Shown: positions 16,497-61,216, counted from the stretch's first letter. The stretch: 64,000 bases of DNA from an uncultured Clostridia bacterium (GCA_937876205.1 CALEII010000052.1:381-64380); one strand, 5' to 3'. Numbers and translations are program-made. The notes: a model not told the origin generated them from the letters alone.

Positions 16497-16569
16497 TATA
16501 AATCCCTCCTTTTTTATTATAATACAAAAGCGGCTTGTTTTCAAGCCGCTTTAAATTTTATCAATTATA

Positions 16570-21776: not shown

Positions 21777-21874
21777 TGTTATACCTCCAAATATAAAATG
21801 TTTAAAATGAAATATCCCATATCGGGATATTTTTATTATACCAATATGGGATAATAAAGTCAAGAGGTGATTTT

Positions 21875-28634: not shown

Positions 28635-29275
28635 TGAAGTTCCTCCGAATTTGTAATGTTGTAGCAAAGTGTCATCAGACTGTCGTTGAGGTGGACATTT
28701 TCAACCAGCACATCGGGGTGGTCATCGTGAATGTTATAATGGCTGAAATTCCAGAAAGCTTTTATTCCGCTGTCAACAAGCTTTTGAGTTACTTCCTTGC
28801 CTGCATTTGAGGGGATACAGAGAATAGCAGCTGTGGGGCTGTATTTTTTGCAGAAATCTTCAACAGTGTCAAAGCTTCTTACTTTTATGTTGTTGATTTC
28901 AAGTCCTTCAAGATTTTTATCTGAATCAAAAATTGCAGACAGCTCAAAGCCTTTTGTCTGAAAATTAAGATGCTGTGCAATTGCTCTGCCGAGATTGCCT
29001 GCACCCACCAGAATAACACTGTAGCTGTTTTCTATGCCGATTATATTACCTATGCTTTTTCTGAGCTCTTCAATTTTATAACCGTAGCCCTGCTGACCGA
29101 AGCCGCCGAAGTGATTAAGGTCCTGTCTTATCTGTGAAGCTGTAAGCCCCATTCTCTCAGCCAGGTTTTTTGAAGATATTTTTTCAATTCCTTCTTTCTG
29201 AAGAATACCCAGAAAACGGTGATATCTCGGCAATCTTGATATGACTGACTTTGGAATTGTGTTATTATTTTTCAT
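28631..29275 (-). CDS. rex: redox-sensing transcriptional repressor Rex
   Basis: IPKSVISRLPRYHRFL winged-helix N-terminus and Rossmann motif ILVGAGNLG. Start taken as ATG 29275; the ORF-track TTG at 29308 would overlap icd. Confidence 0.88.
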   Translation of the reverse strand: MKNNNTIPKSVISRLPRYHRFLGILQKEGIEKISSKNLAERMGLTASQIRQDLNHFGGFGQQGYGYKIEELRKSIGNIIGIENSYSVILVGAGNLGRAIAQHLNFQTKGFELSAIFDSDKNLEGLEINNIKVRSFDTVEDFCKKYSPTAAILCIPSNAGKEVTQKLVDSGIKAFWNFSHYNIHDDHPDVLVENVHLNDSLMTLCYNITNSEELQ

Positions 29276-44280: not shown

Positions 44281-44309
44281 TTGCATTATTTTTCCATTTG
44301 TGCTATAAT
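44281..44309 (+). promoter_or_regulatory. sigma-A promoter with extended -10
   Basis: TTGCAT, 17-nt spacer ending in TGC, TATAAT. Confidence 0.6.
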
Positions 44310-44336
44310 GTATACGTTTTGAAAGGGGAGACCTTT

Positions 44337-45788
44337 ATGAAGAGATTTTTAAGTGTTATTTTGTCAATTCTTCTTGTTTGCGGTACTTCTGTGGTTGCTT
44401 TTGCAACTGAGAATGATGCTGACGTTGTTGACGCTGAATACCCGTTTGTTGTCTGCCGCGGAATGGATTTTGACGGTCTTACAACGGATCTGGGACTTGA
44501 AACAGAGAGAAACGCGCTGAATCCCATTGAAGTCAGTGGTGTTGTTTCAACACTCGCAAAGTGTGTCGGCAACGCTGTCAAAGAGGGGAATATAGACGGT
44601 ATTATGCCTTCTCTTATGGAATACCTCGATTATGTTATGGGTGGTCTTGCCTGCGATAATAACGGTAATTCCGTTCATAACACAACAATGAAGAGCTATC
44701 CTCTTGCAATCGGCAATTATCCGGATTATCTTGAAGAGCATAAGGATATTGCCCCTATGGAGCACGGTATTGTTATGGGCGGCGTTGACAGATATGGCTC
44801 TGACAAGGTTTATTATTACGCTTATGACTGGCGTTTTTCACCCCGTAACACCTGTGACGGTCTCAATGATATGATTGAGCTTGCTAAGGCTGAGCATAAC
44901 ACAGATAAGGTAAATCTCGTCTGTGCAAGTATGGGTGGCGCAGTTGTTGATGCTTATATTTATGAATACGGAACAGACAGCCTTAATAAGTGCATTTTTG
45001 ACGGTACAGTTTTCTGCGGTACTTATGTTGTAACAGACCTTTTCCAGAAAAAGGTGCTTATCACAGGCACAGGTCTTGAATACTTCCTTTACGACAAGAT
45101 GGGTGACAACAATTTCTTTGTAAAGACACTTGCGACAACAGGTATGCTTGATACTGTTGCAGACCTTGCAATGAAATTTGTTGACAGATACATTGATTAC
45201 GTTTATGAAAACTTCCTTATTGATACATTTGTTACAATGCCTGCGCTCTGGGCGATTGTTCTTCCCGATGAATTTGATGCTTGTGTTGAAACAATGTTCC
45301 CCACAGATGAAGACAAGGCTCACTATTCGGCAATTATCGAAGAAGCATATGCTCTTCACGAAATGATGACAGGTATGGATGACCTTCTTCTTTCACTTCC
45401 CGAAAAAGGAGTTGAAGTGGCTGTATTTGCAGGTTATCATATGTCTCCCGTGCCTGTATATGAACGCTCTGCATCACACGGTGACAATGTTCTTGAGTCT
45501 GCACTTATGCTCGGCAGAGCAAGAGTTGCCAACTTTGGTGAAGAACTCGAAGGTGACAGCGTAATGATGTCACCCGATAAGCAGGTTGACCTTTCAACTT
45601 GTCTTTTCCCTGAATATACATGGGCAATCAAGGATATGCCTCATGTTTCCTGCGGATACGGCAGTGAAGTTGCTGACTTCCTCTTCTGGCTCGTTGAATT
45701 TGACGGTCAGCCTACCGTTACATCAAATTCGCAGTATCCTCAGTTTATGATTTCATCAGCTGATGAAAGACTGATTCCCTTTGAATAA
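44337..45788 (+). CDS. secreted LCAT/PGAP1-like alpha/beta-hydrolase lipase
   Basis: The start was moved to ATG 44337 (SD aggggaga). Signal peptide ending VAFA. The YDWR motif and nucleophile elbow CASMGG are as in LCAT-type lipases. Confidence 0.7.
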   Translation: MKRFLSVILSILLVCGTSVVAFATENDADVVDAEYPFVVCRGMDFDGLTTDLGLETERNALNPIEVSGVVSTLAKCVGNAVKEGNIDGIMPSLMEYLDYVMGGLACDNNGNSVHNTTMKSYPLAIGNYPDYLEEHKDIAPMEHGIVMGGVDRYGSDKVYYYAYDWRFSPRNTCDGLNDMIELAKAEHNTDKVNLVCASMGGAVVDAYIYEYGTDSLNKCIFDGTVFCGTYVVTDLFQKKVLITGTGLEYFLYDKMGDNNFFVKTLATTGMLDTVADLAMKFVDRYIDYVYENFLIDTFVTMPALWAIVLPDEFDACVETMFPTDEDKAHYSAIIEEAYALHEMMTGMDDLLLSLPEKGVEVAVFAGYHMSPVPVYERSASHGDNVLESALMLGRARVANFGEELEGDSVMMSPDKQVDLSTCLFPEYTWAIKDMPHVSCGYGSEVADFLFWLVEFDGQPTVTSNSQYPQFMISSADERLIPFE

Positions 45789-47310: not shown

Positions 47311-47760
47311 TCACAGAATAATCATTTCGTCATCGCCGTCTTTGTTATAAAGACCGAATGCCTCATTATCATCACTTAAAAACACTTTAAGATATGTATT
47401 GAAATTAGGAGAGAGCTGATAATTGCTGAAATCCTCTTTGTTAATCCAGAAAACTTCACCCTCATCAGTTTTGTCAACAAGCTCACCGCTGAATTCTGTT
47501 ACTTTATAAAGCAGAACGATGTACCTTTCGTCAGTATCCTTGTGACACCAGTGAACCGTGCCGCATAGTTTCGGATTTTTTATATCAAGTCCTGTTTCTT
47601 CTTTTACTTCTCTTACAGCACTGTCTGTAAAGCTTTCACCTTTTTCTATGTGACCGCCCGGAAAAGTTACTCCTGTCCAGTATTTTACCCGTTTTTGAAC
47701 CAAAACCATACCGTTTTCGGGATTTTCTATCATTACCATATTGGTAAGTTCGCAATTCAT
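47311..47760 (-). CDS. NUDIX hydrolase
   Basis: Nudix box GGHIEKGESFTDSAVREVKEETGL. Confidence 0.88.
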   Translation of the reverse strand: MNCELTNMVMIENPENGMVLVQKRVKYWTGVTFPGGHIEKGESFTDSAVREVKEETGLDIKNPKLCGTVHWCHKDTDERYIVLLYKVTEFSGELVDKTDEGEVFWINKEDFSNYQLSPNFNTYLKVFLSDDNEAFGLYNKDGDDEMIIL

Positions 47761-47817: not shown

Positions 47818-50800
47818 TTAGTATTCTATAACGCCCGTGAAGATAAGGTCTGTTGTGCCTTCAAGAGTAATCTGATCATCCGTATAGTTGACAATCAGGT
47901 CGCCGCCCTTGAGCTTAACAACGATATCTTTGCCTTTTTCAATGTAGCCGAGTTCACAAGCTGCTGCAACTGCTGCACAAGCGCCTGTACCGCAGGCGTA
48001 TGTTTCACCGTTGCCTCTTTCCCATACTCTCATTCGAAGAGTTCTTGAATCAACAACTCTTACGAATTCTGTGTTGATTTTTTCGGGGAAGTATTTTGCA
48101 TTTTCAAATCCGGGTCCGATTTCCTTAAGGTTGTAAGCATCGATATGAGTACCGAATACTACACAGTGAGGATTACCTACATTTACACAAGTAACGTTGT
48201 ATTCCTTGCCGTCAACAACTATGGGCTGATTAACAACTTTACCCTTTGAAATGATGTTTGTGGGAATCTTTTCAGCTTCGAATTCTGCCTTACCCATATA
48301 AACCTTAACAGATTTTACTCGGCCGTTTTCTGTGTAAAGGTGAATTCTCTTTAAGCCTACAGGTGTTTCGATTGTCAGATGTGTCTTGTCAACGATGCCG
48401 TTGTCATAGAGGTATTTACCTGCGCATCTCAGACCGTTACCTGCAATGTAGCCCTTTGAGCCGTCCTTATTGTACATAAGCATCTTTGCATCAGCGATAT
48501 CTGACTTTTCTATAAGAACAATACCGTCTGAACCGATACCGTAATGTCTGTTGCAGAAGTTTATAGCAAGAACCTCGGGAGAAGTGATTTCACCGTTAAG
48601 ATTATCAAAGAAGATGAAGTCATTGCCTGAGCCCTGCATCTTAGCGAATTTAAGCTTTGTGGGCTCTGTACGCATTTCATTGATGTTTACAAGCTCTGTA
48701 TTAGCCTGAGTAAAGCCGCTTGCAAGAATGTCAGCAAGAACGTTTGCTGTGTCAATTGATGTAAGTGTTGCAACTGAGAGCTGAAGAGCACGTCTGTGAA
48801 GCTTGATGAAGTCATCAACAACATCAAGGGGAGTGCCTGTGTAAACGATATACTTGATCTTGCCGCTTTCAAGAAGGTCCATACTTGTGTTTGATTCATC
48901 ATAAAGCTTGTTGACAACAGTAACATCAATGTCAACTGAGCCGATAACCTTTGCTGTGCCTTCTGTAGCGTAAATCTTGAGACCAAGGTCGTGGAACTTT
49001 CTTGCAAGGTCAACAACTTCGGGCTTGTCAGCATCCTTGACAGTGATGTAAACACCCATTTCCTTGCCGAGTTCCTTGGGAGCAATTTCAAAGCCTGCTG
49101 AAACGAGACCCTTGAAGAGTGCTTCGTCGATTGTTTTGCCCACACCGAGAACTTCACCTGTTGATTTCATTTCGGGACCAAGGCTTGAGTTTGCATCGAG
49201 AAGCTTCTCAAATGAGAATACGGGAACCTTGACTGCAAAGTAAGGGGGAGTCTTGTAAAGACCTGTGCCGAAGCCGAGGTCAACGAGGGGAGTACCGGTC
49301 ATAACCTTTGTTGCGATATCAACCATAGGTACGCCTGTAACCTTACTGATATAAGGAATGGTTCTTGAAGCTCTGGGGTTAACCTCGATAACATAAAGCT
49401 CATTCTCATAAATGAGGTACTGAATGTTAACAAGACCCTTTGTACCGAGAGCAAGAGCAAGATTTGTTGAGCAGTCAATGATTGTCTGCTTCATTGTGTC
49501 ACGCAGATTATAAGGGGGATAAACTGCAATTGAGTCACCTGAGTGAACACCTGCACGTTCAACGTGCTGCATAATACCGGGGATAAGAACATCCTTGCCG
49601 TCTGAAATAACGTCAACTTCAAGCTCAGAGCCCATCATATATTTGTCAACAAGAACGGGATTCTCAATTTTACCTGAAAGAATGATGTTCATATACTTTC
49701 TTACGTCTTCGTCATTATAGGCAATAGTCATATTCTGACCGCCGATAACGTACGAGGGACGAAGAAGTACGGGATATGTGAGGGTGTGGGCTGCATCAAG
49801 AGCTTCTTCAAGTGTGAGAACACCCATACCCTTAGGTCTTCTGATGCCGAATTTTTCAAGAAGAGCATCAAACTTTTCTCTGTCTTCGGCAATGTCAATA
49901 CCTTCTGCAGATGTACCGAAAATTCTGAAACCGTTGTCATCGAGGAATTTTGTCAGCTTGATAGCTGTCTGGCCGCCGAAAGCAACAACGACACCTTCTG
50001 GCTGTTCTGTCTTGATGACATTAAGAACATCTTCGGGAGTGAGAGGCTCAAAGTAGAGTCTGTCTGCTGTGTCAAAGTCAGTTGAAACAGTTTCGGGGTT
50101 GTTGTTGATGATAACAACCTCATAACCGAGGTTCTTGAGAGTCCATACACAGTGAACGGACGAGTAGTCGAATTCAATACCCTGACCGATTCTGATAGGA
50201 CCTGAACCGAGAACGATAATCTTTTTCTTCGTGTTGCCCTTGAGATATTCTCTTGCTTCACAGTCTTTGTCATATGTGGAGTAGAAATAAGGTGTCTGAG
50301 CCTTATATTCAGCTGCACAGGTGTCAACCATCTTGTAAACAGCATCACGGGGATTTTCTATCTTTGAACCGCTGATTCTTTCAATGGCGGCATCAGTATA
50401 GCCGTATTTCTTACCTTTGAGGTAAAGCTCATCTGTAAGACCGTTTGCAATTTCAGCTTCATAGTTTGCAAGATTTCTGAGCTTTTCAATGAACCATTCA
50501 TCAATCTTTGTGATGTCGTGAATAGTTTCTGTTGAAACGCCTCTCTTGATAGCTTCAAAAACTGTGAAAAGACGGATATCATCAACATCGTGAAGCTTTG
50601 CTACGATGTCAATTTCGGGATCCTGAACCTTCTTGAAATTGAGTGTATCAAGTGAAATTTCAGCACCTCTTACAGCCTTCATAATAGCAGCTTCAAAGCA
50701 GGGAGCGATTGACATAACCTCGCCTGTTGCCTTCATCTGAGTGCCGAGCTTTCTCTTTTCGTTGATGAACTTGTCAAAGGGCCATTTAGGAAGCTTAATT

Positions 50801-51861
50801 ACGCAATAGTCAACTGTGGGCTCGAAGCAAGCAAATGTCTCACCTGTGACGTCGTTTCTGATTTCATCGAGAGTGTAGCCGAGAGCAACTTTTGTTGCAA
50901 CCTTAGCAATGGGATAGCCTGTTGCCTTTGATGCGAGTGCAGATGACCGTGAAACACGGGGGTTAACCTCAATAACAGCATATTCAAATGATTCGGGATT
51001 AAGCGCAAACTGACAGTTACAGCCACCCTCGATGCCGAGAGCTTCAATAATCTTGAGTGAAGCGTTACGAAGCATCATAAACTCTTTATTTGAAAGAGTA
51101 ACAGCGGGAGCGATAACAATACTGTCACCTGTATGAACACCGACGGGATCGAAGTTTTCCATTGAGCAGACAGCAATTGCATTACCTGCGCTGTCACGCA
51201 TTGCTTCAAATTCAATTTCTTTCCAGCCGTAGATATATTTTTCAACAAGAATCTGATTGATAGGTGAGAGAAGAAGACCGTTGTTTACAATAGGCATAAG
51301 CTCTTCTTCATTGTAAGCAACACCGCCACCTGCACCGCCAAGGGTGAAAGCGGGACGGATGATAACGGGGAAGCCGATTCTCTTTGCAATCTCACGTGCC
51401 TGTTCAGCTTCTGTTGCGATATCAGAAGGAATGCAGGGCTGACCGATTGATTCCATTGTTTCTTTGAAAAGCTCTCTGTCTTCAGAACGGTCAATAGCTT
51501 CGGCATTGGTACCGATGAGCTTTACGCCGTGCTTTGCAAGGAAGCCGCTCTTTGCAAGCTGCATACCGATGGTAAGACCTGTCTGACCGCCGAGGCCGGC
51601 AAGAACTGAGTCGGGTTTTTCTTTTTCGATGATTCTCATAACAGTTTCTTCTGTCAGAGGTTCAAGATAGATTTCATCCGCATTTGCATTATCTGTCATA
51701 ATGGTAGCAGGGTTTGAGTTGACAAGTATTACGTCAAGACCTTCATCTTTAAGGATTTTACAAGCCTGAGTACCTGCGTAGTCAAATTCGGCAGCCTGTC
51801 CGATAACGATAGGACCTGAACCGATAACGAGAACCTTCTTTATATCTTTATTAAGCGGCAT
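47818..51861 (-). CDS. carB: carbamoyl-phosphate synthase large subunit fused to a C-terminal diaminopimelate-epimerase-like domain
   Basis: 1347 aa in one uninterrupted frame. Residues 1 to ~1067 are a full CarB (two ATP-grasp halves plus an MGS-like allosteric domain). The last 280 aa (47821-48660) carry DapF motifs: KMQGSGNDF, NKDGS....AGNGLRC, GNPH, ERGNGETYACGTGA. SD gggaggtga; the start overlaps the carA stop (TAATG). Confidence 0.9.
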   Translation of the reverse strand: MPLNKDIKKVLVIGSGPIVIGQAAEFDYAGTQACKILKDEGLDVILVNSNPATIMTDNANADEIYLEPLTEETVMRIIEKEKPDSVLAGLGGQTGLTIGMQLAKSGFLAKHGVKLIGTNAEAIDRSEDRELFKETMESIGQPCIPSDIATEAEQAREIAKRIGFPVIIRPAFTLGGAGGGVAYNEEELMPIVNNGLLLSPINQILVEKYIYGWKEIEFEAMRDSAGNAIAVCSMENFDPVGVHTGDSIVIAPAVTLSNKEFMMLRNASLKIIEALGIEGGCNCQFALNPESFEYAVIEVNPRVSRSSALASKATGYPIAKVATKVALGYTLDEIRNDVTGETFACFEPTVDYCVIKLPKWPFDKFINEKRKLGTQMKATGEVMSIAPCFEAAIMKAVRGAEISLDTLNFKKVQDPEIDIVAKLHDVDDIRLFTVFEAIKRGVSTETIHDITKIDEWFIEKLRNLANYEAEIANGLTDELYLKGKKYGYTDAAIERISGSKIENPRDAVYKMVDTCAAEYKAQTPYFYSTYDKDCEAREYLKGNTKKKIIVLGSGPIRIGQGIEFDYSSVHCVWTLKNLGYEVVIINNNPETVSTDFDTADRLYFEPLTPEDVLNVIKTEQPEGVVVAFGGQTAIKLTKFLDDNGFRIFGTSAEGIDIAEDREKFDALLEKFGIRRPKGMGVLTLEEALDAAHTLTYPVLLRPSYVIGGQNMTIAYNDEDVRKYMNIILSGKIENPVLVDKYMMGSELEVDVISDGKDVLIPGIMQHVERAGVHSGDSIAVYPPYNLRDTMKQTIIDCSTNLALALGTKGLVNIQYLIYENELYVIEVNPRASRTIPYISKVTGVPMVDIATKVMTGTPLVDLGFGTGLYKTPPYFAVKVPVFSFEKLLDANSSLGPEMKSTGEVLGVGKTIDEALFKGLVSAGFEIAPKELGKEMGVYITVKDADKPEVVDLARKFHDLGLKIYATEGTAKVIGSVDIDVTVVNKLYDESNTSMDLLESGKIKYIVYTGTPLDVVDDFIKLHRRALQLSVATLTSIDTANVLADILASGFTQANTELVNINEMRTEPTKLKFAKMQGSGNDFIFFDNLNGEITSPEVLAINFCNRHYGIGSDGIVLIEKSDIADAKMLMYNKDGSKGYIAGNGLRCAGKYLYDNGIVDKTHLTIETPVGLKRIHLYTENGRVKSVKVYMGKAEFEAEKIPTNIISKGKVVNQPIVVDGKEYNVTCVNVGNPHCVVFGTHIDAYNLKEIGPGFENAKYFPEKINTEFVRVVDSRTLRMRVWERGNGETYACGTGACAAVAAACELGYIEKGKDIVVKLKGGDLIVNYTDDQITLEGTTDLIFTGVIEY

Positions 51862-52916
51862 TACTTGTCACCTCCCATAAGTGAAATAAATTTATCGTAA
51901 ATTTTGTCTGTGTCAACTGTAGCTGAGAAACAATCGGGTGTGAACTGAATTGAAAATGCCTTTGCATATTCAAGCCCTTCAATTGTGTTATCACTGACAT
52001 TTGTGAAAAGAACTTTTGCATTTGCAGCAGCTTCGCTTACAACATATCCGTGGTTCTGATGTGTTGCGAAAACCTTGCCGTCGTCCATATTTCTAACGGG
52101 AACACTGCCGCCTCTGTGACCGAACTTCATTTTTGAAGTTTTACCACCCTGAGCCAGAGCCATAACCTGATGACCGAGACCGAAGCCGAACATAGGCTTA
52201 TCAGCCATAATAGATTTAACTTCTGCAATAAGTTCAGTGTTTTCTTCAGGGTTTCCCGGGCCGTTTGTAACAACAACACCGTCGAATGTGCCCTCAAGAA
52301 TTTCAGAAGCCTTTGTGTTATAAGGGAATACAGTCACATTGCAGCCCTTTTCTGTAAGCTTTTCGATTGCATTTGCCGCAGCACCGCAGTCAAGCATTGC
52401 AACTGAATATTTTCCGTCTTCTGCTTCAAAATAAGCTTTTTTGTTTGATGCAACTGATGAGAGTGCATCTTTGATTTCATATGCTTTGAGTGCATCAAGG
52501 TCAACATTTGCAGGATTTTCTGTGATACAGGCATTCATAGCACCGTTTTCACGGACAAGCTTTGTAAGCTCTCTTGTGTCAACGTCGCATATTGCAATAA
52601 TGCCGTTTTCCTTGAGATAATCCTCAAGCCCGCCTTCGCATCTGAAGTTTGAAGGCATATCACAGATTTCTCTTGCAACATAGCCCTTAATGACAGGCTT
52701 GGCACCGTTTGTGTCTTCATTGATGATGCCGTAATTGCCGATAAGAGGGAATGTCTGAAGAACAATCTGACCGTAATAAGCGGCATCTGTAAGAGTTTCG
52801 ATGTAACCGACAACACCTGTTGTGAAAACAAGCTCGCCGACTGTTTCACCTGTTGCACCGTAACCCTTGCCCTCAAAAACGTGACCGTCTTCAAGTACAA
52901 TGTACATCTTTTTCAT
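51861..52916 (-). CDS. carA: carbamoyl-phosphate synthase small subunit homologue with degenerate glutaminase active site
   Basis: CarA N-domain and a GATase fold (SNGPGNP-type TNGPGNP). The nucleophile motif reads FGFGLGHQ instead of FGICLGHQ, and the His/Glu motif reads IQFTPD instead of (V/F)Q(Y/G)HPE. Confidence 0.85.
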   Translation of the reverse strand: MKKMYIVLEDGHVFEGKGYGATGETVGELVFTTGVVGYIETLTDAAYYGQIVLQTFPLIGNYGIINEDTNGAKPVIKGYVAREICDMPSNFRCEGGLEDYLKENGIIAICDVDTRELTKLVRENGAMNACITENPANVDLDALKAYEIKDALSSVASNKKAYFEAEDGKYSVAMLDCGAAANAIEKLTEKGCNVTVFPYNTKASEILEGTFDGVVVTNGPGNPEENTELIAEVKSIMADKPMFGFGLGHQVMALAQGGKTSKMKFGHRGGSVPVRNMDDGKVFATHQNHGYVVSEAAANAKVLFTNVSDNTIEGLEYAKAFSIQFTPDCFSATVDTDKIYDKFISLMGGDK

Positions 52917-52962: not shown

Positions 52963-53886
52963 TTACTGTTTTTCCTGATACTGTTCCTTCATAAGCTTAA
53001 CAAGAACAGCTTTCTGTGCATGAAGTCTGTTTTCAGCCTCTTCAAAGATTTCCTTTGCGTGTGCTTCAAATACTTCAGCAGTAATTTCTTCTTCTCTGTG
53101 AGCAGGTAAGCAGTGAAGAACCATTGCGTCAGGCTTTGCAACTGCCATAAGTGAGGAATTTATCTGATAGCCTGCGAATACTTTCTTTCTTTCTTCAGCT
53201 TCAGCTTCTTCACCCATTGAAGCCCATACGTCTGTGTAAAGCACGTCAGCATCCTTTGCAGCTTCATAAATGTCTGTTGTGAGTGTGAATTTACCTGTTT
53301 CGTTTGCCCATTTTACAATATCTGCATCAGGCTCATAGCCCTTGGGGCAAGCGACAGCAACATCCATACCTACCTTTATACAACCGACGATTAGTGAATT
53401 GCACATATTGTTGCCGTCACCGATGAATGTAAGCTTCATTCCCTTGAAGGTGTTCTTGAATTCACGGATTGTCATAAGGTCTGCAAGAACCTGACAGGGA
53501 TGAGCGTAGTCTGTAAGACCGTTGATGATGGGGATTGAACCGTAGTTTGCGAGCGTTTCAACCTCTTCCTGGTCGAATGTTCTTATCATAATACCGTCAA
53601 GGTAACGTGAGAGAACTCTTGCTGTGTCTTCAACAGGTTCGCCTCTGCCGAGCTGTGTGTTGGCGTTTGAAAGGAAAAGAGCTGAACCGCCGAGATCATA
53701 CATACCCACTTCAAAGGAAACTCTTGTTCTTGTTGATGACTTTGCAAAAATCATACCGAGAGTTTTGCCTTTGAGATAGTGATGCTCAATATTGTGCTTT
53801 TTTTCATATTTGAGCTGGTCTGCAAGGTTGAGTATTGAGAGAATTTCTTTCTCTGAATAGTCACCTAATTTAAGTAAATGTTTCAT
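52963..53886 (-). CDS. argF: ornithine carbamoyltransferase
   Basis: STRTR, HPCQ and HCLP motifs. Confidence 0.92.
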   Translation of the reverse strand: MKHLLKLGDYSEKEILSILNLADQLKYEKKHNIEHHYLKGKTLGMIFAKSSTRTRVSFEVGMYDLGGSALFLSNANTQLGRGEPVEDTARVLSRYLDGIMIRTFDQEEVETLANYGSIPIINGLTDYAHPCQVLADLMTIREFKNTFKGMKLTFIGDGNNMCNSLIVGCIKVGMDVAVACPKGYEPDADIVKWANETGKFTLTTDIYEAAKDADVLYTDVWASMGEEAEAEERKKVFAGYQINSSLMAVAKPDAMVLHCLPAHREEEITAEVFEAHAKEIFEEAENRLHAQKAVLVKLMKEQYQEKQ

Positions 53887-55046
53887 TCTTCAATTACCTC
53901 CGTGATTATATTCATAGCCTTCTCAAGCTCTTCGTCAGAGATGTTGAGAGGGGGAAGAAGTCTGATTTTTGTTTTTGCGGTAAGGGGAAGGACGCCTTTT
54001 TCGATGCATTTCATAACAACTTCTTTTGCGTCTTTTGTAGTTTCTATGCCGAGCATAAGTCCCATACCCGTTACACTTTTAACATTTTTGCATTCTTCAA
54101 GGCGTTTTCTGATGTATTCACCTTTTGCTCTGACACAAGCAAGGAATTTATCGTCAAGTCTTTTGACTATGTTTAAAGCACCTGCGGCAACAACGGGATT
54201 CATTCCGAACGTTGAGCCGTGTGAAGAGGGAGTCATTGTGTCTTTAGTCTTTTCGCCGAAGAGACATACACCCATCGGAAGACCGCCTGCAACACCTTTT
54301 GCTGTTGATACAAGGTCAGGCTCAATATCAAACTGCTGATATGCGTACATACTGCCTGTTCTGCCGTTGCCTGTCTGAACTTCGTCTATTATTACAAGTA
54401 TATCATATTTCTGACAGAATTCATATACTTTTTTTATAAAAATTTTATTTAAAGGAATAACTCCGCCTTCACCCTGTACCATTTCCATAATGACGGCACA
54501 GACATTCTCATTGTATACGCTCATAAATGAGTCGAAATTGTTAGCCTCTGCATATACAAAACCCTCCGGAAAGGGTCCGAAGGTTGTGTGGAAGACATCC
54601 TGACCTGTAGCCTTGAGAGTGGCAAGAGTTCTGCCGTGGAAGCTCTGGGTGAGTGAGATTATTACATTTCTGTCGGGATTCTCATATTTGTCAAGAGAAT
54701 ATTTTCTTGCAGCTTTTATAGCACATTCGTTGGCTTCTGCACCTGAGTTGCCGAAGAAACACTTCTTCATTCCTGATTTTTTACAAAGAAGCTCAGCAAG
54801 CTCCACACCGGGCTGTGTATAAAAGAGATTTGATGTGTGCTGAAGAGTGTTCAGCTGCTTTGTAACAGCTTCAACCCATTCCTTGTCACAGTAACCGAAA
54901 GCATTTACTCCGATGCCTGTGCCCATATCAATGTATTCCTTGCCGTTTTCATCAACGGCAACAGCCCCGTGACCGCTGACAAGGGTTACGGGGAATCTGC
55001 CGTATGTATTGGCAATATACTGTTTATCTTTTTCGATTGTTGTCAT
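53883..55046 (-). CDS. argD: acetylornithine aminotransferase
   Basis: Class III aminotransferase motifs (GSGAEANE-type NSGAEANE, DEVQTG, STAKG). ATGA overlap with argF. Confidence 0.9.
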   Translation of the reverse strand: MTTIEKDKQYIANTYGRFPVTLVSGHGAVAVDENGKEYIDMGTGIGVNAFGYCDKEWVEAVTKQLNTLQHTSNLFYTQPGVELAELLCKKSGMKKCFFGNSGAEANECAIKAARKYSLDKYENPDRNVIISLTQSFHGRTLATLKATGQDVFHTTFGPFPEGFVYAEANNFDSFMSVYNENVCAVIMEMVQGEGGVIPLNKIFIKKVYEFCQKYDILVIIDEVQTGNGRTGSMYAYQQFDIEPDLVSTAKGVAGGLPMGVCLFGEKTKDTMTPSSHGSTFGMNPVVAAGALNIVKRLDDKFLACVRAKGEYIRKRLEECKNVKSVTGMGLMLGIETTKDAKEVVMKCIEKGVLPLTAKTKIRLLPPLNISDEELEKAMNIITEVIEE

Positions 55047-55055
55047 AATTACACC

Positions 55056-55910
55056 TTACTCTACAAACATCGTGCCGATACCTTCATCGGTAAGAGTTTC
55101 AATGAGGATTGCGTGGGGGATTCTGCCGTCAATGATGAAGACCTTCTTCACACCCATTCTGATAGCCTCTGTACAGCACTGTACCTTGGGAATCATACCG
55201 CCTGATATAACACCGTCGTGCATAAGCTCTCTCGCATCGCTGACATAGAGCTTCTTGATAAGTGTTGAAACATCATCCTTGTCACGCAGAAGTCCCGGAA
55301 TGTCAGTCATATTGATAAGACTTTCTGCCTTTAATGCACCTGCAATGTATGCTGCAGCAGTGTCTGCATTTATGTTATATGAATTGTTCTCTTCATCAAA
55401 AGCAACAGTTGAAATAACGGGGATATAATTCTTGTCAAGAATATCTGTGATGATTTCTGTGTTGACTTCTGTTATATCACCGACAAAACCGTGAACATCG
55501 TCAAGCTGTTTAGCCTTTATCATCTGACCGTCAATACCGCAGATGCCGACAGCCTTGCCGCCCATATTGCCTATTTTATTAACAAGATTCTTGTTGATTT
55601 TGCCTGCAAGAACCATCTGAACAGCCTCAATTGTTTCTTCGTCTGTTACACGAAGACCGTCAATGAATTCACTCTTTTTGCCTGTTTTTGTGAGAAGCTC
55701 ATTGATTTCGGGGCCGCCGCCGTGCACAAGCACAACCTTTATACCGATAAGCGAAAGCAGTACAAGGTCACCGATAACTGCTTCCTTGAGCTCTTCGCTT
55801 ATCATTGCATTTCCGCCGTATTTTACGACGATTATTTTATTTCTGTATTCCTGTATATAAGGGAGAGCCTGAGTGAGTATTTCGGCTCTCTGTGCATTTG
55901 TAATATCCAT
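55056..55910 (-). CDS. argB: acetylglutamate kinase
   Basis: VVKYGGNAM and VLVHGGGP motifs. Confidence 0.92.
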   Translation of the reverse strand: MDITNAQRAEILTQALPYIQEYRNKIIVVKYGGNAMISEELKEAVIGDLVLLSLIGIKVVLVHGGGPEINELLTKTGKKSEFIDGLRVTDEETIEAVQMVLAGKINKNLVNKIGNMGGKAVGICGIDGQMIKAKQLDDVHGFVGDITEVNTEIITDILDKNYIPVISTVAFDEENNSYNINADTAAAYIAGALKAESLINMTDIPGLLRDKDDVSTLIKKLYVSDARELMHDGVISGGMIPKVQCCTEAIRMGVKKVFIIDGRIPHAILIETLTDEGIGTMFVE

Positions 55911-57124
55911 TATGTTCTGTAATCTCCGTTTATTTTAACATAGTCGTAAGTCAGGTCGCAGCCTCTGGCAACAGCTGTTGAGTCACCGTCATTGAGGTCA
56001 ACATTTACCTTGATTTCATCACAGAGAAGAATTTCTTTTGCCTTATCTTCACTGAAAGGAACGCCAGCACCGTTCTTGCATACTTCAATTGTGCCTTTTT
56101 CACTTGTGAATGAAACATCAATCTTTGTAACATCAACATCTGCACCACTGTAGCCTATAGCACACAGTACACGTCCCCAGTTTGCATCGGCACCGAACAT
56201 TGCAGCCTTGAAAAGTGATGAGCAGATAACTGATTTTGCAACTGTTTTTGCAGTGTGCCAGTCTTTACCGCCTGATACAAAGCATTCAACAAGCTTTGTT
56301 GCGCCTTCACCGTCTTTTGCAATAGCTCTGCAGAGCTTTTCTGTAATCATTGCAAGAGCCTTTGTGAAAACTTCAAAGTCTTCGTTTTCTTCGGTGATAA
56401 GTTCGTTTCCTGCCATACCGTTTGCCATAACGGAAACCATATCGTTTGTTGATGTATCACCGTCAATGCTTATCATATTGAAGCTCTTCTGAGCATCTGA
56501 ATAAAGAGCCTTGTGAAGCATCTCGGGAGAAATAGCTGCATCTGTTGTTATGAAAACGAGCATTGTTGCCATATTCGGGTGAATCATACCTGAGCCCTTT
56601 GCAATACCGCCCATTTTACATTCTTTTCCTCCGAGAGTGAAGCTTACGGCAAATTCCTTTTTGACTGTATCCGTTGTCATAATTGCTTCTGCAGCGTTTG
56701 TGCTGTTGTCATAGCCGAGCTCAGAAACAAGCTGAGACATACCGTCTTCAATTGGAGTGATTTCAAGAGGCTGACCGATAACACCTGTTGATGCAACAAT
56801 GACATCCTTTGCATCAACTCCTGTGGCTTCTGCTGTGATTTCACACATCCTTGTTGCAATTTCAACACCGTCAGCGTTGCAGGTGTTTGCATTTCCGCTG
56901 TTGCATATCATAGCCTGAGCTGTGCCGTCTGAGATGTTGTCTTTTGTAACGTAAATCGGAGCACCCTTTACGAGATTGAGAGTATATATGGCTGCAGCAG
57001 ATGCCTTGCAGTCACTTACGATAAGCGCAAGGTCACGCTTTGTCTTGTTTTTTCTGATTCCGCAGTGAATACCACTTGCCTTGAACCCTTTTGGAGCACA
57101 GACTCCGCCGTTTATGTATTCCAT
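55910..57124 (-). CDS. argJ: bifunctional ornithine acetyltransferase / N-acetylglutamate synthase
   Basis: Autoprocessing site ATMLVFITTDA. Start taken as ATG 57124, because the ORF-track TTG at 57130 sits too close to the SD aaagga. Confidence 0.9.
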   Translation of the reverse strand: MEYINGGVCAPKGFKASGIHCGIRKNKTKRDLALIVSDCKASAAAIYTLNLVKGAPIYVTKDNISDGTAQAMICNSGNANTCNADGVEIATRMCEITAEATGVDAKDVIVASTGVIGQPLEITPIEDGMSQLVSELGYDNSTNAAEAIMTTDTVKKEFAVSFTLGGKECKMGGIAKGSGMIHPNMATMLVFITTDAAISPEMLHKALYSDAQKSFNMISIDGDTSTNDMVSVMANGMAGNELITEENEDFEVFTKALAMITEKLCRAIAKDGEGATKLVECFVSGGKDWHTAKTVAKSVICSSLFKAAMFGADANWGRVLCAIGYSGADVDVTKIDVSFTSEKGTIEVCKNGAGVPFSEDKAKEILLCDEIKVNVDLNDGDSTAVARGCDLTYDYVKINGDYRT

Positions 57125-57138
57125 AGTCAAAATTCCTT

Positions 57139-58077
57139 TCAGATGTCAAGTGATGTTGTTTCGTCAATTCCCATTGAAATGTTCATACACTGAACTGCGG
57201 CACCCGAAGCACCTTTTCCGAGATTGTCAAAAACACTTGTTATAAATATTCTTTCTTCATTGCCTGAAATGAGTATCTTCATTGAATCTTTACCGCTTTT
57301 TTCGTTGGCAGAAACCATTGATACGGGAGTTTCACCGCCATATAACGGAAGAACTTCAATAAACTTTGAGTCTTTGTAGTGATTTGCAAATACAGAATGA
57401 ATTTCAGCAATGCTTGTCTTATTCAGAAGCTTTGTGAAAAGGGGAATAGTCGTAGCCATTCCGCTGTAATAGTCATCAACAATGGGAGTGAAAATGGGGA
57501 AGTCGTCGAGCCCTGTGATAACTTTCATTTCCTTGAGATGCTTGTGATTCTGTGTCAGACCGTACTGTCTGGGAGCAAACAGATCGGAAGTTTTTTCATT
57601 CTCATAGTCATTTATCATTTTTTTGCCGCCGCCGCTGTAGCCGGTGAGTGAATGACACACAACGGGGTAGTCGGAAGGCATAATTCCCTTTGCAATAAGG
57701 GGATAAACTATTGAAATGAATCCGCTTGCGTGACAGCCGGGGACTGCAATGCGCTTTGATGATGAAATCTTGGCTCTGTGTTCATCTGAAAGCTCTGCAA
57801 AACCGTATGCCCAGTCGGGATTTGTTCTGTGTGCTGTTGATGTGTCAATGATAACAGTACTGTCATTTGCACACAGAGAAACAGATTCTCTTGAGGCTTC
57901 ATCGGGCAGACAAAGAAATGTGATGTCACTCATATTTATCAGGCGTCTTCGTTCTTCTCTGTCTTTTCTCAGATTTTCGTTTATTGAGAGCAGCTCAATG
58001 TCTTCTCTTTTGCTCAGATGGTCAAAAAGCCTGAGTCCTGTTGTGCCCTGATTGCCGTCAATGAATACCTTATACAT
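57139..58077 (-). CDS. argC: N-acetyl-gamma-glutamyl-phosphate reductase
   Basis: The start was moved to ATG 58077 (SD aggag). GNQGTTG NAD-binding motif and active-site PGCHASG. Confidence 0.9.
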   Translation of the reverse strand: MYKVFIDGNQGTTGLRLFDHLSKREDIELLSINENLRKDREERRRLINMSDITFLCLPDEASRESVSLCANDSTVIIDTSTAHRTNPDWAYGFAELSDEHRAKISSSKRIAVPGCHASGFISIVYPLIAKGIMPSDYPVVCHSLTGYSGGGKKMINDYENEKTSDLFAPRQYGLTQNHKHLKEMKVITGLDDFPIFTPIVDDYYSGMATTIPLFTKLLNKTSIAEIHSVFANHYKDSKFIEVLPLYGGETPVSMVSANEKSGKDSMKILISGNEERIFITSVFDNLGKGASGAAVQCMNISMGIDETTSLDI

Positions 58078-58109
58078 AAAAAATACTCCTATTAAAAATC
58101 TATTATAAT

Positions 58110-58137
58110 ATTTTACTCTTTTTCGTGTGAATGTCAA
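58110..58137 (-). promoter_or_regulatory. sigma-A type promoter of the arg operon
   Basis: On the minus strand: TTGACA, 16-nt spacer, TAAAAT, about 30 nt upstream of the argC ATG. Confidence 0.55.
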
Positions 58138-58347: not shown

Positions 58348-60231
58348 TTATGAATTTAATTCATCCCATTCGGTGTATAGCTCCTCCTGTCTTACTGACA
58401 TTTCATCAAGCTTTTTTGTCAGTTCCATAAGCAGTTCATAATCAGCTGCTGTTTCAGGCAGTCCGAGCTGTTGTTCAATTCCAAGCTTCTCGTTTTCGAG
58501 CTCTTCGATTTCAGCTTCAATACGCTTGATTCGGGTTTGTTTCTTTCTTTCCTGAGAATCTCTTTCTTTGCGCAGCCGGTATTCATTAGGCTTCTTTTCT
58601 TTTTTCTCTTTCGGCTGCTGACCGGTCACAAGAGAAGCTGCGTAGTCATCGTAATTACCGTCGAAAGAAATAAGGCTGCCGTTATCAAGAATAAGTATTC
58701 TTGTTGCAAGTTTATTCACAAGAAATCTGTCGTGAGAAACACAGAACAAAGTTCCGTCATAACCCGAAAGTGCATCTTCAAGTACTTCTCTTGAAGCTAT
58801 GTCAAGATGGTTTGTCGGCTCGTCGAGAATAAGAAGGTTCGGCTTTCTGAGCATCAACTCAAGAAGGGCTGTTCTTGCTCTTTCACCGCCTGAGAGATCG
58901 CACATTTTCTTTTCAATTTCATCACCACGGAATCTGAATGCACCTAGGAATCCTCTCAGCTGTGAAATTGTGAAAGCAGGGAATTTATCATATACTTCCT
59001 GCAGAACAGTCTTGTCTGAATCAAGACCTGACTGAATCTGGTCAAAATATCCCGGCTGAACATTTGCGCCGAATCTTGCAAAACCCGTGTCAGGCAGAAG
59101 CTTGCCTAGAACAGCCTTTAAAAATGTTGATTTGCCGCAACCGTTGGCGCCGAGTATGAATACCTTTTCACCTTTCATTACTTTAAGATTAACATTTCTG
59201 AAAAGTGTTTTTTCACCGTAGGATTTAGATAAATCTGTTACTATGATAACCTCATTGCCGCTGACGGAGCCCGATTCAAACTGCAGCTTCATTGATTTTT
59301 CGTCAGCTTCTGGGGCTACCATATCTTCTTTAATACGGTCAATCTGCTTTTGCTTGCTGGCAATTGTTATATAGTTGCGTTCACGGTTGAACTGCTTCTG
59401 CTGCTTTATAATACCCTCAATACGTTCAACTTCTTTAGCCTGCTGCTCGTATTTTCGTCTGTCAGCTTCTTTCTGTTCTTCCTTGAGTTTTGCATAAACG
59501 GAGTAATTACCTTTTCTGACTGTAATCTTTTTGTGCTCGATTTCCATTGTCTTGTTTGTTACCTTGTCAAGAAAATATCTGTCGTGGGAAACAATCAGAG
59601 CAGTGCCGTTATATTTTGAAAGAAAATCTTCAAGCCATTCAACACTTTTGATGTCGAGATGATTTGTCGGCTCGTCAAGAAGTATTAGATCGGAATCGGA
59701 CAGCAACAGCTTGCCGAGTGCAATTTTTGTGCGCTGACCGCCGCTGAGGTCACCGACGGGAAGATTTTGTTCCTCCTGAGTAAAGCCGAGACCTGAAAGC
59801 ATTGAGTTTGCTCTTGAACGGAATGTAAGACCGCCGAGAGACTGAAATTTTTCTGTCAGTACGGATTGCTTTTCAATAAGCTCAGCCATTTCAGAGGGCT
59901 GTGTATCTATAACGTTGTGCAGATTTTCAAGCTCCCTTTCCATATCCTCCAGATATGAAAAAACAGACAGCATTTCTTCCTTTGCCGTCTTGCTGAAATC
60001 GGAGCAGGCGTGCTGCTCAACATATCCTGTTTTTGCGTTTGATGATATAAAAAGACCGCCGCTTGCGGGCTCATAGATGCCTGCAATCAGCTTGAATAGA
60101 GTTGTTTTTCCTGTTCCGTTGCTGCCGATGAGACCGACCTTATCGTGCTCTTCAATATCAAAGCTTGCTTTATCGAAGAGCACGTTGTCAAGAAATTCCA
60201 TCGTCAGCTCGTGTGCGCTTATAACTGACAT
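58348..60231 (-). CDS. ABC-F family ATPase (two NBDs, no TMD, C-terminal coiled coil)
   Basis: The start was moved to ATG 60231, which lies 1 nt after the manA stop. Walker A GSNGTGKTT and GANGCGKST, signatures LSGGQ and LSGGER, charged interdomain linker and Uup-like tail. Confidence 0.88.
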   Translation of the reverse strand: MSVISAHELTMEFLDNVLFDKASFDIEEHDKVGLIGSNGTGKTTLFKLIAGIYEPASGGLFISSNAKTGYVEQHACSDFSKTAKEEMLSVFSYLEDMERELENLHNVIDTQPSEMAELIEKQSVLTEKFQSLGGLTFRSRANSMLSGLGFTQEEQNLPVGDLSGGQRTKIALGKLLLSDSDLILLDEPTNHLDIKSVEWLEDFLSKYNGTALIVSHDRYFLDKVTNKTMEIEHKKITVRKGNYSVYAKLKEEQKEADRRKYEQQAKEVERIEGIIKQQKQFNRERNYITIASKQKQIDRIKEDMVAPEADEKSMKLQFESGSVSGNEVIIVTDLSKSYGEKTLFRNVNLKVMKGEKVFILGANGCGKSTFLKAVLGKLLPDTGFARFGANVQPGYFDQIQSGLDSDKTVLQEVYDKFPAFTISQLRGFLGAFRFRGDEIEKKMCDLSGGERARTALLELMLRKPNLLILDEPTNHLDIASREVLEDALSGYDGTLFCVSHDRFLVNKLATRILILDNGSLISFDGNYDDYAASLVTGQQPKEKKEKKPNEYRLRKERDSQERKKQTRIKRIEAEIEELENEKLGIEQQLGLPETAADYELLMELTKKLDEMSVRQEELYTEWDELNS

Positions 60232-60232
60232 T

Positions 60233-61216
60233 TTATACCTTTGTATGAAGTAATTTTGCTTTTCCGCTGACATAGAAAGAGCCGCTGTCGGCAGGGATGA
60301 ATATGCTGTCACCCTTGACGAATTCTCTTTCTTCAGCACCGCATTTTATAGTTCCTTCGCCGTCAAGAACAACGAGTGAAACGAAGGATGTTTCATCTGC
60401 ATCGTCTGCATAGAGTGTGTCAACTTCAATTGATGTCATTGTGAAATAAGGACATTCAGAAAGAAGCACACTTGTGTATCCGTCGTGCTTTACGGGCATT
60501 CCTTCAGGGGCAAGATTGCCTTCGGGAATAGTGCATTTTGTCACATCAACAGCCTTGTCTACGTGCAGTTCTCTGGGCTTACCGTCAAGACCTGTTCTGT
60601 TATAGTCAAAAACCCTGTATGTTGTGTTGCAGCTCTGCTGAACTTCAGCAAGGAGAATTCCTTTGCCGATAGCGTGGAGTGTGCCTGCAGAAATGAACGC
60701 AACGTCATCGGGCTTTACTTTCACTTTGTTGACTTTTTCAAGCAGTGTTCCGTTTTCTATAGCAGAACGGAATTCATCCTTTGATAAATCATCCCTGAAG
60801 CCGTAGATAAGCTCAGCGTCATCATCGCAGTCAATTATGTACCAAGCTTCTGTTTTGCCTCTTATATCCTTTTCGTTTGCTGCAGCATATTCATCATCGG
60901 GATGTACCTGCACGGAAAGCTTGTCATCTGCATCAATAAGCTTTATAAGAATAGGGAAGTCCTCAATCTTGTCATAGCCCTCACAGTCTGTACCCAGAGC
61001 AGACATACCAAGCTCCTTTTCAAGCACGTGGCTGAGTGTTTTTCCGTCAAATTCACCGCCGACAACAACACTTTCACCGTCTTCGTGGCAGGAGAGCACC
61101 CAGGCCTCCGCGATATTTTTAAGGTTTGTTTCCATTTTGAAGTCATTTCTTAATCTGTTGCCGCCCCAGATTGTCTCCTTTAATGCGGGCTTTAAGAAAA
61201 ATAAACTCAAAGTCAT
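60233..61216 (-). CDS. manA: class I mannose-6-phosphate isomerase
   Basis: LKPALKETIWGG, QVHPDD and the cupin HA(I/Y)GKG region. SD ggagtg. Confidence 0.85.
   Translation of the reverse strand: MTLSLFFLKPALKETIWGGNRLRNDFKMETNLKNIAEAWVLSCHEDGESVVVGGEFDGKTLSHVLEKELGMSALGTDCEGYDKIEDFPILIKLIDADDKLSVQVHPDDEYAAANEKDIRGKTEAWYIIDCDDDAELIYGFRDDLSKDEFRSAIENGTLLEKVNKVKVKPDDVAFISAGTLHAIGKGILLAEVQQSCNTTYRVFDYNRTGLDGKPRELHVDKAVDVTKCTIPEGNLAPEGMPVKHDGYTSVLLSECPYFTMTSIEVDTLYADDADETSFVSLVVLDGEGTIKCGAEEREFVKGDSIFIPADSGSFYVSGKAKLLHTKV

Follow-up and report, generated by a model that had tools for sequence, protein, structure and literature searches.

Diaminopimelate epimerase, DapF, converts LL-diaminopimelate (LL-DAP) to meso-DAP by means of two cysteines, Cys73 and Cys217, which face the alpha-carbon from opposite sides as a thiolate/thiol pair, with Cys73 serving the L-centre as its general base. 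Racemase activity is lost when Cys is changed to Ala in DapF or in related two-base racemases. Catalytically dead parts derived from enzymes are known from other biosynthetic systems, for example the glutaminase-like domain of CPS1, the mammalian carbamoyl-phosphate synthase (CPS), which is without a catalytic Cys, and HisZ in ATP-phosphoribosyltransferase. Here we analyse a stretch of 64,000 nucleotides from an uncultured Clostridia bacterium (GCA_937876205.1, CALEII010000052.1:381-64380), referred to throughout as the window, in which carB, the gene for the CPS large subunit, continues in frame into a dapF-derived sequence where the position of Cys73 is occupied by Ala. Two textbook enzymes, both of them targets for antibiotics or engineering, are found in this form on one polypeptide in abundant gut and rumen Oscillospirales. 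Residues of the DapF part are numbered as in H. influenzae DapF, with a reference sequence that was verified by its expected residues at 14 landmark positions.

A CarB-DapF fusion without the first catalytic cysteine

The fused gene lies on the minus strand, and its parts, together with the two codons that matter for catalysis, are located in the window as follows.

47818..51861, minus strand: carB~dapF*, a single open reading frame (ORF) of 1347 codons and a stop, placed last in the arg operon
48721..51861, minus strand: CarB part, residues 1-1047, with two pre-ATP-grasp plus ATP-grasp units, an oligomerisation domain and an MGS-like domain
48760-49020, minus strand: MGS-like allosteric domain, residues 948-1034 (Pfam MGS)
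48643..48669, minus strand: junction of nine residues, T1065-A1073, between ...INEMR (the C-terminal motif of CarB) and KMQGSGNDF (the first strand of DapF)
47821..48660, minus strand: DapF-derived domain, residues 1068-1347, with the two-lobed DapF fold; TIGR00652 gives 263 bits when this part is scanned alone
48442..48444, minus strand: codon GCA for Ala1140, at the H. influenzae Cys73 position of the first catalytic cysteine
47992..47994, minus strand: codon TGC for Cys1290, at the H. influenzae Cys217 position, the second catalytic cysteine, retained

No stop codon or change of frame interrupts the ORF, whose translation includes ELVNINEMRTEPTKLKFAKMQGSGNDF and reads ...ELVNINEMR-TEPTKLKFA-KMQGSGNDF... 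across the junction. Against the hidden Markov models (HMMs) of NCBIfam, residues 1-1047 match the CarB equivalog NF003671 at 1434 bits (cutoff 599), the CarB model TIGR01369 is matched at 1398 bits (cutoff 1027), and residues 1071-1345 match the DapF equivalog TIGR00652 at 258 bits (cutoff 114.65). The Pfam domains follow the order of CarB (CPSase_L_D1/D2/D3, MGS) and then continue with DAP_epimerase (PF01678) twice, at E = 1e-53. With a full-length HMM match, the domain order of CarB and an adjacent carA gene, the protein is a bona fide CarB. An earlier note on this DNA, made from the sequence alone, had read the gene as an in-frame fusion of CarB to a DapF-like domain; the single ORF of 1347 amino acids (aa), with both equivalog models above their cutoffs, bears this out, and the double PF01678 domain that it anticipated is recovered by Pfam.

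The motifs KMQGSGNDF and GNPH, which the same note had picked out as diagnostic, are both present in the DapF part, and the best matches to DapFs in the PDB reach E = 8e-64 (phmmer). In the phmmer alignments to 2otn, 9mro and 3ejx, the Ala of YIAGNGLRC aligns with the Cys of CGNG(L/I/V)RC, and the Cys of YACGTGA with the second catalytic Cys; a MAFFT alignment likewise places Ala in the Cys73 column. Replacement of the first catalytic Cys by Ala (GCA at 48442-48444) and retention of the second (Cys1290), both proposed beforehand, are thus confirmed by alignment to solved DapFs. To turn GCA into a Cys codon (TGY) would require at least two base substitutions. The DAP-binding residues N11, N64, G74, N75, N157, N190, R209, G218 and T219 are all present in the window protein, and the Cys217 equivalent (Cys1290), H159 and E208 are all kept. 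Around the altered position the protein has N11, A73 and G76, with no new Cys, Ser, Asp or Glu nearby.

Because Ala1140 stands in place of Cys73 and no substitute base accompanies it, canonical two-thiol epimerisation of LL-DAP to meso-DAP should be excluded for this protein on the basis of known DapF enzymology. The expectation that the domain would not epimerise by the known mechanism follows from the same enzymology. As a DapF homologue by sequence and fold that is without the defining Cys73, the C-terminal domain should not carry the annotation EC 5.1.1.7.

A family of fusions and the recurrent loss of Cys73

A search with the last 380 aa retrieved 120 proteins in which MGS and DAP_epimerase occur together. 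Their Cys73 column in a MAFFT alignment has Ala in 115, Gly in 4, Ser in 1 and Cys in none, and Cys217 is invariant. With lengths of 334-639 aa these matches were short, and they began at methionines inside CarB. A genuinely shorter family was considered and dropped, as the single short-match case that was examined (L001) proved to be an assembly split of 878 + 449 aa and a full-length query gave proteins of 1338-1358 aa; limited retrieval from the search index may be a further cause of the short matches. The 120 nearest proteins found with the full sequence, all 1338-1358 aa long and all with PF01678, are up to 97% identical to it. Position 73 is Ala or Gly in 117 of them, the other three being unscored by the regular expression, and Cys217 is kept in 119, the remaining one being a miss of the regular expression; AGNGLRC is identical in relatives at 85-97% identity. 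Some clusters at 90% identity have more than 1000 metagenomic members, and one named “Eubacterium sp.” (P0463) has 1391 members on 222 contigs. Across databases the fusion occurs in thousands of Oscillospirales entries, annotated as CarB, many of which keep both cysteines; the names given to the full-length relatives are just “carbamoyl-phosphate synthase large subunit”.

Full-text searches of the literature turned up no paper that describes CarB fused to DapF. A gut-microbiome amino-acid reconstruction (PMC9026213) and a GapMind 2026 preprint treat the DapF, DapF2 and Ddh variants and not CarB-DapF. The architecture is therefore common in databases and apparently undescribed in the literature. 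The earlier note's statement that it knew of no such architecture stands as far as papers go, but the architecture is not a rare one. JGI labels a stand-alone DapF of 280 aa from Acutalibacter muris (P0220) “carbamoyl-phosphate synthase large subunit”, which looks like annotation transfer from fused proteins, and at NCBI the name “diaminopimelate epimerase, partial” is given to pieces of the fusion, full-length fusions being called just CarB. Three other DapF fusions of 666-742 aa (P0296, P0306 and P0350) have an N-terminal partner that looks unlike the CarB tail and keep both catalytic cysteines.

A scan of one genome per GTDB species gave at least 598 relatives, and the best 80 loci, which are the best matches to the window's own type, were analysed. 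All 80 cover the end of CarB and the DapF part. They come from Oscillospiraceae, Ruminococcus, Acutalibacter, Neglectibacter, Anaerotruncus, Saccharofermentans, metagenome-assembled genomes (MAGs) labelled Christensenellaceae, and two MAGs labelled Treponema. Intact fused ORFs of ~1340-1360 aa from stop to stop are present in ~60 loci from independent assemblies, and a few are longer. The spacing between the CarB motif (IN.MR) and the first strand of DapF is 9 residues in all 153 scorable fusions, of both the types described below, and so exact a spacing suggests that the fusion happened once and that the junction is under constraint.

These data also bear on whether the fusion might be an artefact, that is, a missed stop or frameshift between carB and dapF, or a sequencing error at the Cys codon. 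The split of the L001 MAG gene into two pieces demonstrates that assemblies can break the gene. Against this, the frame is continuous at ~48660-48700, where the earlier note had advised a check for a missed stop or frameshift, and intact fused ORFs recur in the ~60 independent assemblies; the 120 full-length database proteins share the architecture, 117 of them with Ala or Gly at position 73; at least two substitutions separate GCA from TGY; and the junction length is invariant. We reject an artefact on the continuous ORF, the assemblies and the database proteins, and give it almost no remaining weight.

Two observations on individual loci may be recorded here. The fusions on contigs of Treponema sp.-labelled MAGs (L078 and L079) suggest horizontal transfer or mis-binning; L079 pairs with an Oscillospiraceae MAG (L081), apparently from one gut metagenome study, judging by the isolate names. 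Stop-to-stop ORFs of 1411-1512 aa, against the usual ~1347, occur in L003 (2602-7137), L015, L061, L070 and L078, and the extension in L003 resembles carA. These longer ORFs may reflect in-frame upstream read-through, MAG frameshifts or a further fusion to carA.

The fusions are of two forms. Position 73 is Cys in 18 of 81 fused domains and another residue in 63 (Ala 50, Gly 10, Phe 1, Ser 1, Thr 1), as counted among the best matches to the window's type. Isolates with the Cys-bearing form include Ruminococcus sp. FC2018, Neglectibacter caecimuris M00184 and Ruminococcaceae bacterium AM07-15, and the complete genome of Acutalibacter muris KB18 (CP021422.1) encodes a 1360-aa fusion with both Cys. 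The next gene after the fusion is dapL, which encodes LL-DAP aminotransferase (TIGR03542, 491 bits, cutoff 365) in 10 of the 18 Cys-bearing loci; it follows the fusion in none of the 63 Cys-less loci and is not found in the window. Upstream of the fusion, carA is present in 57 loci, and Cys-less loci are typically preceded by argD-argF-carA. A stand-alone DapF with two Cys (TIGR00652, ~300 bits) is encoded beside the fusion in A. muris, in an Acutalibacter MAG (L073) and in N. caecimuris (L077). In a tree of DapF sequences the stand-alone proteins of these three nest within the fusion clade, and their position beside the fusion implies that the fused copy can be redundant. No other dapF occurs within ~6 kb of any Cys-less fusion. 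In A. muris KB18 (L082, CP021422.1, 2849-14374), the fusion, the stand-alone dapF, pyrG and a DapL-like aminotransferase form one cluster, which is also seen in L073 and L077; A. muris is cultured and would make a tractable model for the fusion family.

On the basis of its usual dapL neighbour, the Cys-bearing form is probably a working epimerase. Taken together, the Cys-bearing relatives, the linkage to dapL and the fixed spacing point to an ancestral state in which carB was joined to the working dapF of a dapF-dapL cluster, the Cys being lost later.

The history of this loss was followed in a neighbour-joining tree built on 1019 CarB-only columns, which is independent of the DapF domain (60 bootstraps). 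The window belongs to a clade of 41 full-length sequences, all of them non-Cys, that is recovered in 60/60 bootstraps. One domain with Phe73 (L062) is nested in a Cys-bearing clade in 58/60, and the two with Gly73 in L079 and L081 are paired in 60/60. Fitch parsimony gives at least 5 changes at position 73, and up to 7 losses if regain of Cys is disallowed because a Cys codon needs at least two nucleotide changes. There are, accordingly, one large Cys-less clade and at least two further independent losses. As a control, we used the best 150 representatives from a 50% clustering of 1.84 billion proteins. Among stand-alone DapFs, 113 of 119 have both Cys and 3 are without Cys73; in the group with a CarB tail, it is missing from 4 of 9 representatives. 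The close stand-alone relatives of the Neglectibacter DapF keep Cys73 in 119 of 120 cases. Loss of Cys73 is strongly associated with the fused state, in counts that are phylogenetically non-independent and, for the 80 loci, biased to the window type.

In the window itself, the fusion is the last gene of an operon with the order argC-argJ-argB-argD-argF-carA-carB~dapF, which runs on the minus strand from 58137 to 47818. The other genes of the operon are listed from the fusion outwards.

51861..52916, minus strand: carA, the small (glutaminase) subunit of CPS (NF009475, 369 bits), whose stop overlaps the carB start
52963-53886, minus strand: argF, NCBIfam equivalog above cutoff
53883-55046, minus strand: argD, NCBIfam equivalog above cutoff
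55056-55910, minus strand: argB, NCBIfam equivalog above cutoff
55910-57130, minus strand: argJ, NCBIfam equivalog above cutoff
57139-58137, minus strand: argC, NCBIfam equivalog above cutoff

A tblastn search found no second dapF in the 64-kb window, which also has no dapL, ddh, lysA or murE, so that the DapF part is not linked there to genes for DAP or lysine. The only gene of the aspartate/DAP pathway in the window encodes an aspartokinase (19110-20423, minus strand) with AA_kinase and ACT domains, which shows that the organism at least begins this pathway. A small Nudix hydrolase and a MATE transporter lie 3' of the fusion, and the rest of the window includes, besides the aspartokinase, aconitase, isocitrate dehydrogenase, ABC exporters, glycosidases and TrkAH.

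The Nudix hydrolase (149 aa, 47311-47760, minus strand) is directly 3' of the fusion and has weak matches to MutT, YtkD and RppH. In E. coli, DapF has a second, non-catalytic role, in which it activates the Nudix RNA pyrophosphohydrolase RppH (PMC4227774, PMC6061791; PDB 6d13). A Nudix homologue was found near the fusion in 0 of 79 related loci. A conserved DapF-RppH type of link is rejected on this count, and the adjacency is probably specific to the window and coincidental.

Elsewhere in the window, the ORF at 44298-45788 (plus strand, 496 aa) has no match in Pfam or NCBIfam, and those at 15708-16544 (minus strand, 278 aa), 21159-21863 (minus strand, 234 aa) and 27963-28667 (minus strand, 234 aa) have none in Pfam, the sole library with which they were scanned. 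An ABC-F ORF of the EttA/Uup-like type (58348-60339, minus strand), read from a GTG start, overlaps the end of the phosphomannose-isomerase ORF upstream of it (60233-61216, minus strand) by ~100 nt; its true start is probably further downstream, because its HMM matches begin near residue 37-40.

Selection on the Cys-less domain and its possible roles

Relaxed selection or decay of the Cys-less domain is ruled out by its rates of change. Divergence of the DapF part relative to the CarB part has a ratio of 1.38 in Cys-less pairs versus 1.48 in Cys pairs. In close Cys-less pairs, the ratio of non-synonymous to synonymous substitution rates (dN/dS, Nei-Gojobori) of the DapF part is 0.06-0.22 versus 0.02-0.17 in CarB, and Cys-bearing pairs give 0.05-0.08. 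Purifying selection acts on the Cys-less domain as strongly as on its Cys-bearing relatives.

This conservation extends into the pocket. H159, N190, E208, R209, C217 and G218 are invariant in all 63 Cys-less domains, N75 and N157 are kept in 62, and N64 and G74 in 61. The only variable pocket positions are 11, 13, 73 and 76, all of which flank the reacting centre on the Cys73 side. At position 11, Asn is changed to Asp in 17 of the 63 loci and, among the near relatives that could be scored, in 77 of 96; position 76 is occupied by Cys in 10 of 63 and by Ser in 13, and elsewhere includes Ala, Asn and Gly. The changes specific to the Cys-less clade are C73A, G76(A/S/N/C), S34C, S211N, M155V, Y15F and P50K/R. 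None of these provides a common replacement base, and the independent losses share none of them. A compensating catalytic residue was rejected as a general mechanism, with C76 in only 10 of 63 domains and S34C absent from the independent losses; we take position 34 to be part of a helix remote from the active site. The residue equivalent to Tyr268, which serves dimerisation in E. coli DapF, is aromatic (Y/F) in all fusions, the exception being one domain of the Cys-bearing type.

The last 420 aa were modelled by AlphaFold2 (AF2) with a 72-sequence alignment, at a pLDDT of 90.2 and a pTM of 0.71, and with a lower pLDDT of 61-71 at the junction. The best Foldseek match of the model is a ligand-bound cyanobacterial DapF (9mro_A, TM-score 0.92, root-mean-square deviation 1.6 A), followed at greater distance by O-ureidoserine racemase (7vdy), PhzF and the trans-3-hydroxy-L-proline (T3LHyp) dehydratase 6r76. 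The DapF fold is predicted to be intact in the Cys-less domain. A catalytic residue has been lost while the fold and pocket remain under purifying selection, which are the marks of a pseudoenzyme. The earlier note had suggested a ligand-binding or regulatory module, or a different chemistry. That suggestion gains from the fixed and repeated loss, the purifying selection, the invariant pocket and the lost link to dapL; its more specific idea of an ornithine sensor is pure speculation, since the pocket is of the DAP-binding type.

The reading that we prefer, tentatively and with somewhat less than even confidence, is that the domain is a non-epimerising module that would still bind DAP or a close analogue, and whose closure and/or dimerisation would modulate CPS. 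A single fusion event in Oscillospirales would have joined carB to a downstream, functional dapF adjoining dapL. In the lineage of the window, and independently in at least two others, the fused domain would then have lost its first general base, Cys73, and selection would have kept the fold, the whole DAP-type pocket, Cys217 and the fixed 9-residue junction. The domain may be held against the C-terminal MGS-like allosteric domain of CPS, where the open-to-closed movement on ligand binding that is typical of DapF and/or DapF-type dimerisation could modulate CPS activity or assembly. Retained ligand binding and a regulatory effect on CPS are hinted at indirectly by the constant length of the junction and by the position of the domain directly after the allosteric domain.

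Several considerations weigh against this proposal. That Cys217, H159 and E208 never vary would be expected of a catalyst, and a sensor would not obviously need a thiol. Genomes without another epimerase (a stand-alone DapF or DapF2) or Ddh would force the domain to epimerise. There is no obvious physiological reason for DAP to control an arginine-specific CPS, and the lower AF2 confidence at the junction leaves a rigid coupling to the allosteric domain unestablished. The loci were chosen as best matches to the window's own type, and the 63:18 ratio is thus no unbiased frequency; the trees are neighbour-joining trees of largely MAG-derived sequences.

The pocket could also belong to a protein that is still a DAP epimerase, in which the second proton transfer would come from a cavity water, from Cys/Ser76 or from a partner subunit, for example in a heterodimer with a stand-alone DapF. 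TIGR00652 is matched far above its cutoff with all other catalytic and binding residues intact, Cys or Ser is found at position 76 in some Cys-less loci, neither the window nor the ~6 kb around any Cys-less fusion has another dapF, and the window encodes an aspartokinase; continued epimerisation would become likely if the genomes have no other epimerase or Ddh. However, the window protein has G76 and N11 and no new Cys, Ser, Asp or Glu nearby, position 76 is mostly Ala, Asn or Gly and so offers no common substitute base, and the linkage to dapL is gone in 63/63 Cys-less loci. Firmicutes, moreover, have alternative DAP routes in DapF2 and Ddh (PMC9026213; 10.1101/2024.10.14.618325). We regard continued epimerisation as distinctly unlikely.

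A different chemistry would account for the invariant thiol in another way. An enzyme might use only Cys217, with H159 and E208, either for a single proton transfer at a D-configured alpha-carbon that leads to beta-elimination, dehydration or tautomerisation, or with Cys217 as a nucleophile on a DAP-like amino acid or a ureido or guanidino amino acid of the arginine pathway. By analogy, proline-racemase-like enzymes become 3-hydroxyproline dehydratases when one Cys is replaced. The C73A and C73S mutants of DapF reportedly catalyse HF elimination from 3-fluoro-DAP. The invariance of Cys217, H159 and E208 in 63/63 domains at low dN/dS would be consistent with such an enzyme; the changes clustered at positions 11, 13, 73 and 76, with N11D frequent, look like remodelling rather than decay; the gene context has shifted into arg operons; and Foldseek finds one-base or altered relatives of the fold (6r76, PhzF and 7vdy). 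On the other side, neither arginine nor DAP metabolism is known to include a compound with a beta-leaving group that could serve as substrate, the residues of the distal site for the second, L-amino-acid end of DAP are unchanged and favour DAP over citrulline or arginine, and the inconsistent replacements of Cys73 (A, G, S, F, T), with a variable residue 76, resemble the removal of a group rather than the design of a new site. The pattern of the T3LHyp dehydratases is not seen: there is no specific Thr/Ser replacement, the distal pocket is unremodelled and no co-varying residue is shared. One-base chemistry is unlikely, though it ranks next after the reading that we prefer. Its narrower form, a new single-thiol enzyme of the DapF fold that CPS would bring beside the arginine pathway, and that would act by elimination, tautomerisation or thiol-nucleophile catalysis instead of epimerisation on a DAP-shaped or a ureido or guanidino substrate (an analogue of citrulline, ornithine or arginine), seems improbable; the DapF-like O-ureidoserine racemase could be seen as a precedent for ureido substrates.

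It is also conceivable that the domain has no ligand role and is a structural relic, in that CPS folding or oligomerisation came to depend on a dimer-forming DapF domain through constructive neutral evolution. In E. coli CPS, the allosteric domains of CarB are at the oligomer interface. The junction of 9 residues in 153/153 fusions, the aromatic residue at the Tyr268 equivalent in all but one of them, and the repeated loss of Cys73, which shows that catalysis is dispensable, all agree with a structural role, as does the fact that the domain is never deleted in the 120 nearest relatives. Such a role leaves unexplained why the substrate-contact residues N64, N157, N190, R209, E208, H159 and C217 are invariant at ~55% overall identity, and we consider it quite unlikely.

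In the largest clade the DapF half appears to be disabled as an epimerase and is kept under strong selection. If the domain is a sensor, as in the DAP-binding module that we prefer, it would give the synthesis of carbamoyl phosphate and arginine a new allosteric input, possibly tied to the status of cell-wall and lysine precursors. If it is an enzyme, it would represent a new one-base activity in a racemase fold, and a single-thiol enzyme would mean an unrecognised reaction in the metabolism of arginine or of cell-wall precursors across thousands of Clostridia from gut and rumen. The likeliest outcome, a regulatory or structural pseudoenzyme domain, would be of a familiar kind. There are consequences for annotation in any case, as pipelines ignore the domain (“CarB”) or would credit a DapF activity that is perhaps absent, with effects on predictions of lysine/DAP prototrophy in metabolic models of the gut microbiome. 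The family also offers a clean natural series from fusion through redundancy to repeated catalytic loss, which suits studies of how pseudoenzyme domains originate.

Comparison with known systems

The domain is closest to DapF itself (TIGR00652/PF01678; 1bwz, 2gke, 2otn, 9mro, 3ejx). It shares the full two-lobed fold (TM-score 0.92 to 9mro), is 37-40% identical to DapFs of Firmicutes, cyanobacteria and plants, and has the same DAP-contacting residues, Cys217, H159, E208 and an aromatic residue at the dimerisation position. It differs from them in having Ala for Cys73, in its fusion to the CarB C-terminus via a 9-residue junction, and in the location of its gene in an arginine operon, unlinked to dap or lys genes. 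The Cys-bearing fusions of Ruminococcus sp. FC2018, A. muris KB18 and N. caecimuris have the same architecture, junction length and upstream carA, and share a single origin with the window protein, forming one family with it in both the CarB and DapF trees. Unlike it, they keep both cysteines, usually have dapL next and sometimes an extra stand-alone dapF, and have no argD-argF in front of them. Presumably they are bifunctional, working both as CPS and as DAP epimerase.

More distant parallels are found in proteins where the same superfold has changed its function. The T3LHyp dehydratases (Cys/Thr; 6r76, 4k7g) and PhzF resemble the domain at Foldseek E = 1e-16 to 1e-20 and have likewise lost one of the paired acid/base residues, there with a change of function. 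Identity to them is 13-16%, the replacement here is Ala or Gly rather than Thr, and the remaining pocket is of the DAP type. The glutaminase-like domain of CPS1, which belongs to the same enzyme family, and HisZ are similar in that a single catalytic residue is lost and the fold is under selection within or next to a biosynthetic enzyme. The domain described here differs in its DapF origin and in its place C-terminal to the allosteric domain, and its regulatory role is a proposed one. For a DapF fold that acts via protein-protein contacts, as the CarB-linked domain may do, the activation of RppH by E. coli DapF provides a precedent.

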